A stretch of DNA of 50,883 bases, taken from a virus. Taxonomy: Duplodnaviria; Caudoviricetes. Below are positions 28,420 to 30,895 of the stretch, piece by piece. The notes below the pieces were generated by a model. It did not search any database. It saw only the letters and a list, made by a program, of their open reading frames with translations, and had not been told where the DNA came from. Made by a program: the position numbers and the translations under genes. The stretch lies in IMG/VR virus record IMGVR_UViG_3300042923_000161, positions 1 to 50,883 of that record. One strand, 5' to 3'. Positions within the stretch are counted from its first letter, which is position 1, and every line of letters starts with the position of its first letter.

Positions 28420-28733
28420 TATTTCTCTGCGCGCTTGAGCGCATCATCCAACATACCAAGCAGAGCGCGTAATCCTTCAGGTGCGTTAGCTAACATTTCT
28501 TGCTTAACTAATTCTTGCAAGTTTTCAGCTATGGCGTTCATTGCTGGAAGGCTTGCGGCGTTCATAATTTGCAGCTTGCGGCCCTCTTCAACCTCATGCA
28601 CCATAGATAGGATAAAGCTGCTTGACTCTTTGATTTCGTGCACTTCCTCAGTCCCGTCACGTTTTACCAAGATTACCTTCTCGTATGGTTGTACATCAGC
28701 TTTTACAGTTTTGTTGTTTGTCATTTCAATCAA
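28419..28733 (-). CDS. Hypothetical protein
   Basis: Its stop codon abuts the hammerhead. Confidence 0.7.
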   Translation of the reverse strand: MIEMTNNKTVKADVQPYEKVILVKRDGTEEVHEIKESSSFILSMVHEVEEGRKLQIMNAASLPAMNAIAENLQELVKQEMLANAPEGLRALLGMLDDALKRAEK

Positions 28734-29116
28734 TCTCCCTTGGTTTGTTTTTGGTTTTTCCTTAGACTCAATAAATGGCGGTACTCATTATGTCCGAATG
28801 ATTTCATTCTTGACTTACGCATACTTAGGATTGCGGATATCATCTTGAAGAACTCTGATGGATTGTAATAGAAGCGAACAGCGTCACCGTTATGTCTGCG
28901 TTTATGTACATACGGACATGTCAGCATGTTGTATCTGTACCTGTGTTGGAACTTTCCTTCATGGTCACTTATTCTGATACTGAAAGCCAGTCCAGCATCC
29001 AGCCACATATACACGCTGCCTGTAGGTGAATCGAACCGTTCAACTCTTACACCTGCACGCTTCAGCCTGCGTTCTATCTTTTCAGCCAGCATTTTGACTT
29101 CCTCTTTGCTGTCCAC
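28730..29116 (-). CDS. Hypothetical protein (S.Y...IRISDH motif)
   Basis: TGSVY...IRISDH; GGAGGGAG RBS. Confidence 0.7.
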   Translation of the reverse strand: MDSKEEVKMLAEKIERRLKRAGVRVERFDSPTGSVYMWLDAGLAFSIRISDHEGKFQHRYRYNMLTCPYVHKRRHNGDAVRFYYNPSEFFKMISAILSMRKSRMKSFGHNEYRHLLSLRKNQKQTKGD

Positions 29117-29122
29117 ATCGGC

Positions 29123-29368
29123 TCAACTCCCTCCGATGGTTTTACTGACATCCATCACTGCTTCATTCAGCTTGTCGTACAGTGCACGTTCCTCAAAATC
29201 ACCGTTAAGTGTTCTAATGTTACGTGCATCCCTTGCGATCAATGCTCTTTTGCGCTGATCATGTGAAGCTGAACCGAACGCTGCTGCGACTGCAAGCAGT
29301 TCTTCTGGTGTAAGCCTAATCTCAACGCTCTCCACCATTGTTCTCTTGACAATCCCCATAACTTCCAT
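29123..29368 (-). CDS. Hypothetical protein
   Basis: GAGAGG RBS 9 nt before ATG 29368. Confidence 0.65.
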   Translation of the reverse strand: MEVMGIVKRTMVESVEIRLTPEELLAVAAAFGSASHDQRKRALIARDARNIRTLNGDFEERALYDKLNEAVMDVSKTIGGS

Positions 29369-29405
29369 TTCATTACACCTCTCTCTGGTTTTATTTTGGC
29401 GATGT

Positions 29406-29470
29406 GCCAACCCCTACCCCTTGCGGGGTGGACGCTCTGAGCCTAATGGCCTTGATCCCGCTCAGACGGG
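29406..29470 (-). ncRNA. Pistol ribozyme
   Basis: P1 CCCG/CGGG with loop UCUGAG; P2 GCCA/UGGC; UUAGG; pseudoknot partner CUCAGA; GCG; P3 capped by GCAA; G^U junction. Confidence 0.85.
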
Positions 29471-30169
29471 TTATCTATCTTCTTTCTTCAGGAACGGATT
29501 CTGCCAGATGTTCGCTTGGTACGTTGTGATTGCTGCTTCTCTATGTAGCTGATCTTTGAAGTCGTTCCAAGCTTGGCGCAGCATCGGTTTATCTTGTTTC
29601 TTTCCTTGTGTCCCAAGTTCCGGGTATACCTGTCTAAACAACCTTGTCGCCTGTGATTTATTCAACTTGTCAACCTCCCATTTTGGTCTGAGCCGTTTAT
29701 ACACATGCTCCACAGCATCTGCAATTTGTGAAGCCATGTCATACACCAGTGACAGCCGTGTATTCTGAAGCACGAAGTATTCCATGAAGCCGCCCACATT
29801 GACAATTGCCTTAATGTGTGCATCACCTACGGCTGGAAGAGTCTTGCCCACACCTGCGCCGGGCTTCAACGGCCCAATCTCACATATCGCTTTACCTACA
29901 CTAGATGACTGACCAAGACAAGCATCAATTGCCAGTGTGTAGCGCTTTGGCAATGTGTTCAAGATACCCTCTTCCATACTCACCGCATGGACTGGCTTGT
30001 GCAGTGTTCCATACACATTCCTAATCCCTCTTTGCTGAAGCATAAGCCCAACCATCGGGCCTAAGCTGTCTCCCGTGCTGCGATCTGTGCCGATACATAC
30101 GATGTTCATTTCAGATATGTGACGTGGGACGATTGCATCCAGTTCTTTAGTCAGTGACATGTCAGTCAA
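29471..30169 (-). CDS. yyaC: YyaC-family spore protease with a C-terminal extra domain
   Basis: CIGTDRSTGDSLGPMVG, YGTL..PVHA, AIDACLG, PGAGVGK.LPAVGD and LQNTRLSLV. Confidence 0.92.
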   Translation of the reverse strand: MTDMSLTKELDAIVPRHISEMNIVCIGTDRSTGDSLGPMVGLMLQQRGIRNVYGTLHKPVHAVSMEEGILNTLPKRYTLAIDACLGQSSSVGKAICEIGPLKPGAGVGKTLPAVGDAHIKAIVNVGGFMEYFVLQNTRLSLVYDMASQIADAVEHVYKRLRPKWEVDKLNKSQATRLFRQVYPELGTQGKKQDKPMLRQAWNDFKDQLHREAAITTYQANIWQNPFLKKEDR

Positions 30170-30545
30170 CCCCTTCCGGTTTATTGAAGTCTACATAGTG
30201 TGTGACATCTTCCAAGAAAGCACCTGTTGATAGTTTGGTGAAGCTTCCCGTGTTGTCGATATACCCAGCGATTGGGATACTGTATTCTTCAGACCACAGC
30301 AGGTAATCCTTGTACGGTTCCAACTCATCCTTGTTGATCGGCTTCCAGTCAATGGCTGGTGTTGGTTTGTTTGTACGTACAGTGTCATTGAATGCATTTC
30401 GAATGGCTGACTCAGCAATATCAGGTCGTACACCCTCATCCATCAACCTGCGCATTGCAGTAGCCTTTGCTATAACTGGGTTGGGCACGTTGAATGCTCC
30501 AGCTTCAATCAGGTAACGGTAGGCACGTGTCATAATTTGGCTCAT
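30162..30545 (-). CDS. Hypothetical protein, DUF551-like C-terminal domain
   Basis: DWKPIN...VTHY...NKPE. Confidence 0.65.
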   Translation of the reverse strand: MSQIMTRAYRYLIEAGAFNVPNPVIAKATAMRRLMDEGVRPDIAESAIRNAFNDTVRTNKPTPAIDWKPINKDELEPYKDYLLWSEEYSIPIAGYIDNTGSFTKLSTGAFLEDVTHYVDFNKPEGVD

Positions 30546-30547
30546 TT

Positions 30548-30895
30548 TTATTCCATCCCTTCCGGTTTATTGAACTCAGCGTAGTGTGTGAGTTCAGCTT
30601 CACGGTACGTCACACGTTCGTCATCATAGACTTCTGTGCGTTCGCTGATGAAGTAACCCGCACCTGTCAGATACGCAACGTCTGGGGCACTCCATTTGTG
30701 ACCCCACACTAGATAGTCCTTGTCTGGTTGCATTTGCGTAATGTTGATCGGCTTCCAGTCAAGTGCGGGTGTTGGCTCATCTCGGAAATGATCTACATCA
30801 ATGATTGCATGTGCATACCCTCTTTTAAAGTGGGTATCAGGTGCCAGATTGTCAAGTTCCTTACGCAGTTGCTGAAGCAATTTATCTTTATTCAT
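30548..30895 (-). CDS. Hypothetical protein, DUF551-like C-terminal domain (paralogue of 30162..30545)
   Basis: DWKPIN...LTHY...NKPE. Confidence 0.65.
   Translation of the reverse strand: MNKDKLLQQLRKELDNLAPDTHFKRGYAHAIIDVDHFRDEPTPALDWKPINITQMQPDKDYLVWGHKWSAPDVAYLTGAGYFISERTEVYDDERVTYREAELTHYAEFNKPEGME

Follow-up and report, generated by a model that had tools for sequence, protein, structure and literature searches.

A predicted divergent pistol-class ribozyme abuts the stop codon of a YyaC-like gene in a soil phage

The pistol class of self-cleaving ribozymes was reportedly introduced by Weinberg et al. in 2015. Its consensus consists of three stems, a pseudoknot that joins the P1 loop to the P2-P3 junction, ten nucleotides of high conservation, and a GU junction, strictly conserved in length, in which cleavage takes place (Harris et al. 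2015, PMC4604425). The active site contains the purine '32', the general-base guanine 'G40' and the scissile G53-U54 step (PMC6154101 section 2.3; PMC6101554), and the roles of the core loop, including its closing G-C pair, are also described in PMC11300833. In the cleavage reaction the 2'-OH of the G attacks the neighbouring phosphate, which generates a 2',3'-cyclic phosphate and a 5'-OH end; a canonical pistol reacts at about 10 per minute (PMC4604425). In the J1/2 linker, three adenines of high conservation (A19-A20-A21) dock in the minor groove of P1 as A-minor triples (PMC6101554). Disruption of P1 in a tested pistol resulted in a substantial loss of activity (PMC4604425 section 6). PMC6795133 contains no passage on the J1/2 linker, and the pairwise-mutagenesis paper PMC9901934 contains a single mention of pistol. 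Pistols are frequent near phage genes, in Firmicutes and in environmental DNA (PMC4604425).

Two further groups of self-cleaving RNAs are relevant for comparison. The pseudoknot-containing hammerhead (Zhan et al. 2024, PMC11300833) resembles pistol in its fold, its connectivity and its 6-pair pseudoknot and, like pistol, docks an A-rich strand in the minor groove of the pseudoknot-loop stem; its core loop is longer, and in it G8, paired with C3, is the general acid, whereas the element described below has the short pistol loop. The bacterial hammerhead and twister ribozymes and glmS likewise cleave in cis within an mRNA, leave a 2',3'-cyclic phosphate and a 5'-OH, and alter the flanking cistrons; their folds differ from that of pistol, and glmS, in addition, is metabolite-dependent and is situated in the 5' UTR (PMC6765202). 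Bacterial self-cleaving ribozymes have been suggested to process polycistronic transcripts into parts that differ in stability or translation (PMC6765202 section 13), and the biological role of those found in bacteria and phages is described as largely elusive (PMC6765202).

The stretch of DNA analysed here (50,883 nucleotides, hereafter the window) is a complete virus record of 50.9 kb with direct terminal repeats, derived from an uncultured soil phage. The phage encodes a family-A-type DNA polymerase, a primase, helicases, a large terminase and a portal protein. The best phage matches of the DNA polymerase are in Bacillus and Paenibacillus phages (~35% identity), and the host is probably a spore-forming member of the Bacillota. 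All genes from ~33,000 to ~9,700 lie on the minus strand, and the features of this leftward block that concern the present work, in the order of transcription, are the following:

33979-33950 and 33894-33865, minus strand: two sigma-70-type promoter-like sites with an extended -10 TG, each with 11/12 consensus matches
29471-30169, minus strand: upstream gene encoding a YyaC-like spore protease (DUF1256) of 232 amino acids, TAA stop codon at 29473-29471
29406-29471, minus strand: pistol-class ribozyme predicted by a covariance-model match (RF02679)
29376-29383, minus strand: Shine-Dalgarno-like GAGAGGUG as read from the sequence, 7 nt before the probable ATG at 29368
29123-29368, minus strand: downstream gene encoding 81 amino acids, with a putative start picked by its Shine-Dalgarno spacing

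The two promoter-like sites stand 85 nt apart at the head of the gene block; they are consensus matches only, and the total of 18 such sites against a shuffle mean of 15.6 is no excess. A simple scan found no terminator-like site on the minus strand between them and the ribozyme. The orientation of the genes, the promoter-like sites and this lack of a terminator-like site together make it likely that the flanking genes are co-transcribed with the ribozyme.

The upstream gene product matches TIGR02841 ('spore protease YyaC') with 170 bits, where the cut-off is 84.9, and also PF06866, with an E value of 1.8e-49; the yyaC label which a first, sequence-only reading had given to this gene is thereby supported. 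The protein carries a C-terminal extension of ~75 amino acids (residues ~155-232) beyond the DUF1256 domain (residues 10-153); two families of unknown function, phrog_336 (E 1.3e-7) and phrog_10097, match residues 170-226, and viral YyaC homologues align only to residues ~150-185. At 17 viral YyaC/DUF1256 loci, no Rfam match reached the gathering score and no pistol was found, which argues that there is no specific link between yyaC and pistol. No family match was obtained for the 81-amino-acid downstream gene product, some of these searches having used the fragment from 29362.

The minus strand from 29471 to 29406 matches the Rfam Pistol family (RF02679) with 42.1 bits, the gathering score being 34.5, and with an E value of 2e-4 for a search of the whole window on both strands with 4227 families. 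The alignment spans the full model (positions 1-68), and a single-family search of the phage record with RF02679 returned the same place with an E value of 4.8e-8. Pistol is the sole match: none of the other families among the 4227 scanned has a match in the window at E<=1. The sequence-only reading had placed a pistol ribozyme at 29406-29470, directly after the yyaC stop codon, and had named a search with the Rfam model as the check. That search gave a match above the curated threshold at the same bases and with the same cleavage site; place and strand stand, while the extent was one base short, since the model match begins at 29471, on the last A of the TAA at 29473-29471. This last base of the stop codon is thus also position 1 of the model. 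Common descent with the known pistols is very probable. On the strength of the model match, the element at 29471-29406 is a divergent pistol-class element, a new representative of a known class in the usual setting of that class. The parts of the element (all on the minus strand, and assigned by the model alignment unless otherwise indicated) are as follows, from 5' to 3':

29467-29470, minus strand: P1 5' strand CCCG (C29470-C29468 and G29467)
29461-29466, minus strand: P1 loop UCUGAG, the 5' strand of the pseudoknot, with 6/6 Watson-Crick pairs to 29441-29436
29457-29460, minus strand: P1 3' strand CGGG (C29460 and G29459-G29457)
29451-29456, minus strand: J1/2 linker AUCAAG, short and without the conserved AAA
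29447-29450, minus strand: P2 5' strand GCCA
29442-29446, minus strand: core loop UUAGG, including purine '32' and a G that pairs with C29434
29436-29441, minus strand: pseudoknot 3' strand CUCAGA
29433-29435, minus strand: GCG, in which G29435 is the equivalent of the general-base guanine 'G40'
29412-29432, minus strand: P3 hairpin of 8 pairs with a bulged A29415 and a GCAA loop, also present in nested minimum-free-energy (MFE) folds
29410-29411, minus strand: two-base GU junction, predicted cleavage between G29411 and U29410
29406-29409, minus strand: P2 3' strand UGGC, P2 having 4 pairs
29396-29410, minus strand: hairpin of 5 pairs that may form where the 3' cleavage product begins and would reuse the P2 3' strand (the first 30 nt of the product fold with an MFE of -5.8 kcal/mol)

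The element shares with the pistol class (RF02679; PMC4604425) the three helices, the 6-pair pseudoknot and the UUAGG and GCG core, as well as the two-base GU junction with the scissile bond and the neighbourhood of phage genes. The pairing of the P1 loop UCUGAG with CUCAGA, which had been proposed as a 6-bp pseudoknot, is Watson-Crick at all six positions, and the UUAGG and GCG junctions and the GU cleavage site, also named in the sequence-only reading, were aligned to the consensus without a mismatch. The positions of the catalytic centre agree with the consensus, G29443 corresponding to '32', G29435 to 'G40' and G29411/U29410 to G53-U54; the start of P3 (U.G-C-G-C-G) likewise agrees with it, and P2 and P3 each pair with sequences of their own in the window. 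The element departs from the class in P1, which has 4 pairs and an outer A29471/A29456 mismatch, flagged as non-canonical in the model alignment, against the 5 pairs of the class P1 (PMC4604425). Within this P1 a C-G pair replaces a consensus U-A pair, with both sides changed.

To place the element among its relatives, a comparison set was assembled in three steps: (i) an exact search with a 19-mer of the core, which yielded 6 viral contigs with 11 pistol matches; (ii) a degenerate core pattern with P1 and J1/2 left free, which yielded at least 118 further stretches; and (iii) a whole-record Rfam search of 50 records among the 123 pattern loci listed, 36 of them with a prior descriptor or Rfam match and 14 pattern-only, the remaining 73 listed loci being left out. 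Pistol matches (59, with scores of 39.8-77.4 bits for the 57 that reached the gathering score) were found in 38 of the 50 records searched, and 58 of them were parsed for the linker, one partial match being omitted. Most of the phage pistols in the sample score 63-77 bits; of the 58 matches at or above the gathering score, the window included, only two score lower than the 42.1 bits of the window element.

The distance from the pseudoknot loop to UUARG is 15-18 nt, with AAA, in 56 of the 58 other matches parsed; in the window it is 14 nt (CGGG, AUCAAG, GCCA), AAA is missing and two model positions are deleted. The compact variant that had been suspected from the 4-bp P1 and the short J1/2 is thereby confirmed, in a stronger form than had been stated, the conserved AAA being absent as well. 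The two exceptions among the other matches are an element of 39.8 bits with 10 nt between the pseudoknot loop and UUAGG and no AAA (G026:19414-19473), and a sub-threshold element of 32.9 bits with 24 nt and an inserted hairpin (G033:143576-143652). The window element and the former are the only above-threshold matches in the sample without AAA. Consequently, the window element is a natural test of the linker. Pistols were found with the model, under stricter filters, in 3 of 136 genomes of the Paenibacillus family, and all three have AAA. Judged from these alignments, the AAA of J1/2 is highly conserved rather than universal.

Two canonical phage pistols of IMG/VR contigs may be compared in detail (L020 1102-1167, 76.5 bits; L019 2278-2340, 70.4 bits). 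Their pseudoknot strands and 19-nt core are identical to those of the window element, the second has the same P2 3' strand as well, and both are likewise intergenic; they differ in having a 5-pair P1, a linker with AUAAAUA and flanking genes unrelated to those of the window. Compared with the 15-nt class of linkers, the simplest account of the window linker would be two changes, that is, loss of the outermost base of the P1 3' strand and replacement of the first A of the triplet by C. The loss of the outer pair and the loss of adenine docking near that pair would form a coherent pairing; other short-P1 pistols in the comparison set retain AAA. With a P1 of 4 pairs and AA instead of AAA in J1/2, weaker folding than that of canonical pistols is to be expected.

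Among the unusual elements seen in the survey, the more compact one just mentioned (L060 4856-4915, the same as G026:C1:19414-19473) has a canonical pistol 418 nt downstream on its contig. Pistol-like elements with an extra hairpin in J1/2 were seen in L082 (G033:C1:143576-143652 and 142174-142223) and in L252 (1501-1607); one of these reaches 37.9 bits, and the other two, with 32.9 and 28.2 bits, fall short of the gathering score.

Contigs of a second study cover the region at about 97-98% identity. One of them (X4 record 27) spans 29426-29910 and differs at 10 positions, none of them below 29510, which leaves J1/2, P1, the pseudoknot and the core identical; another (X2 record 12) spans 29402-30165 and differs at 21 positions, of which 20 or 21 lie at or beyond 29510. 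The presence of the same linker in contigs of the second study rules out an assembly error as the source of its odd sequence. Such conservation across the relative would be compatible with purifying selection, zero changes in ~85 nt at 2-3% divergence not being significant. The variant-specific 17-mer (end of P1, J1/2, P2 and UUAGG) did not occur in viral contigs; it occurred in 32 stretches of genome contigs and 46 of metagenome contigs, and since none of these 78 continues as a ribozyme, all are rated as chance occurrences. The three genomes reached through such chance loci contain no pistol. A Megablast search with 28700-30700 against 50,697 phage records found no match, nor did a search of viral contigs for relatives based on the DNA polymerase. 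Comparative support for the variant, as far as these sequences go, would be limited to near-identical relatives.

Three further observations were made on the environmental data. In the relative (contigs from X2 and X4, ~97% identical in yyaC), 29134 is joined to 29392 and 29089 to 29390; the region of the downstream 81-amino-acid gene (29135-29391) is not alignable at 80% likeness and is seemingly replaced by a segment of about the same length, and similarity resumes ~4 nt beyond the hairpin that follows the ribozyme. In run X1, the depth over 29405-29449 rises to 99.5, with loose ends that start at 29405 and 29449; as other contigs share only the ~45-nt pistol core, other pistol-bearing phages are probably present in the same soil sample. 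Within the yyaC-like gene, all four runs (X1-X4) have a depth spike at 29754-29819 together with several diverged contigs of short length, as would fit a conserved protein motif common to genes of other organisms.

The element and the stop codon of the upstream gene have 1 nt in common (a gap of -1 nt), and 37 nt separate the end of the element from the next ATG. We compared this layout with that of the 58 comparison matches, with open frames called mechanically and the upstream gap counted from the stop codon of the closest frame that has 50 codons or more; the upstream stop is within 3 nt in 24 of them and within 10 nt in 32. Collapse of near-duplicates yielded 48 clusters, 46 of which have enough flanking sequence, and among these 46 distinct phage pistols the distance to the upstream stop is at most 0 nt in 11, at most 3 nt in 20, at most 10 nt in 27 and at most 30 nt in 31, in a sample that was gathered by pattern and from compact phage genomes, whose compactness alone pushes intergenic elements against genes. 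Both neighbours are no more than 100 nt away in 16 clusters, for which the gap has a median of 1.5 nt on the upstream side and 36 nt on the downstream side, an asymmetry explained in part by the need for a ribosome-binding site downstream. In the three Paenibacillaceae pistols, inspection by eye, without consideration of frame, showed a TAA triplet that overlaps the 5' end of the ribozyme or is a few bases from it. The layout in the window is typical of phage pistols. The literature searched, from which the discovery paper of the class and all supplements are excluded, contains nothing on a stop-adjacent layout in nature, which may nevertheless be in print. Tandem arrays of 3 to 5 pistols per phage contig were also seen (L023 813-1576; L024 4604-6659; G024:C1:13516-15910; G013:C1:2492-4938; G017:C1:2399-4650), in which neighbouring pistols are separated by ~340-560 nt (in some arrays by up to ~1,100 nt); a small open frame typically ends just ahead of each pistol.

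We propose that the element still self-cleaves and serves the processing of a polycistronic mRNA, a reading that is moderately probable. In this process, a long leftward minus-strand transcript would carry the ribozyme in an intercistronic gap. Pairing of the P1 loop with the P2-P3 junction would form the pseudoknot, P2 and P3 would position the GU junction, and the 2'-OH of G29411 would attack its own 3' phosphate, cutting between G29411 and U29410. The YyaC-like cistron would retain its stop codon intact and end in the compact ribozyme fold with a 2',3'-cyclic phosphate, and the compact stack of P1, pseudoknot and P3 at this 3' end should hinder 3' exonucleases. The downstream cistron would begin with a 5'-OH end 42 nt before its ATG, and the two halves of the operon may then differ in stability or in the rate of translation. 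In Bacillus, the 5'-OH end that results from glmS cleavage is degraded by RNase J1. Cleaved glmS mRNA is, in general terms, degraded by cellular RNases (PMC6765202); in contrast to glmS, no ligand or regulator is indicated at the window pistol.

The possible hairpin at 29410-29396 is a lead only: before cleavage it could be a competitor of P2, or, once the RNA is cut, a shield for its new 5' end. As a feature of the class, such a hairpin at the 5' end of the product (at least 3 of the 4 bases of the P2 3' strand paired) was predicted for 23 of the 52 distinct products examined, where shuffles would give 19.0, which is no enrichment.

It is possible, albeit unlikely, that the element is instead a decaying or inactive pistol relic, in which the loss of a P1 pair and of the A-minor triplet disabled folding and left local hairpins only. 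Drift of this kind should have eroded some of the catalytic core, the perfect 6-pair pseudoknot, P2 and P3, yet all of these are intact, and the arrangement of stop codon, ribozyme, 37-nt gap and start codon is kept as well. In favour of a relic, the A triplet is highly conserved and structural (PMC6101554) and disruption of P1 strongly reduces activity (PMC4604425); both the absence of AAA, which 56 of the 58 other matches retain, and the score of 42.1 bits against 63-77 for most phage pistols are in line with a relic. The altered J1/2 and P1 are, however, identical, along with the pseudoknot and the core, in a relative with 10-21 differences in the flanking gene. By analogy, natural twisters are reported to be broadly tolerant of structural imperfections (PMC11662667), which speaks against a relic. 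The other above-threshold element without AAA (G026:19414-19473, 39.8 bits) stands beside two canonical copies, a position that would suit a degenerate copy and is in line with a relic.

A chance resemblance to the pistol model, with neither common descent nor function, is very improbable: the E value of 2e-4 is already corrected for 4227 families and both strands, the score exceeds the curated threshold, a search of 14 control genomes with RF02679 gave 0 matches, and the intergenic, co-oriented and stop-adjacent site is that of other pistols, in a phage, the usual home of the class (PMC4604425). What could be said for chance is that this is a single short element with a lower-tail score whose nested MFE folding, over 76 nt and 181 nt, is no better than that of shuffles (z -1.28 and -0.45, respectively), but nested folding cannot score the pseudoknot. 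Least probable of all is another RNA of similar shape, since a pseudoknot-containing hammerhead, which barely differs from pistol in secondary structure and connectivity (PMC11300833), is contradicted by the 5-nt UUAGG loop in place of the longer C-U-G-A-U-G-A type and by the absence of any hammerhead match at E<=1, and an intrinsic terminator, for which P3 would provide a stable GC-rich hairpin, by the GUUGGCACAUCG that follows P3 with no U run and by a minus-strand terminator scan that lists nothing here.

The preferred reading, that of an active ribozyme that processes the mRNA, may be extended to translation. A ribosome paused at a stop codon covers roughly the next dozen nucleotides. It is geometrically reasonable that a ribosome terminating on the UAA at 29473-29471 masks P1; as it would cover the P1 5' strand and the pseudoknot loop, the ribozyme would not be foldable during termination. 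That the element is, in full, a naturally minimised active pistol, with one layer of the P1/J1-2 triplex lost and with its folding gated by the terminating ribosome, is a doubtful proposition that we consider improbable as a whole. If it were true, the level of upstream translation would set how much RNA is cleaved and, through cleavage, how stable the downstream cistron is, and the stop adjacency seen in ~43% of distinct phage pistols (20/46) would represent a general coupling. As one of the two above-threshold matches without the A triplet, the element also offers a natural test of the need for the P1/J1-2 triplex. The locus itself is mostly ordinary; its layout is shared by many phage pistols and, if linked to translation, would make one hypothesis on the role of these ribozymes testable.
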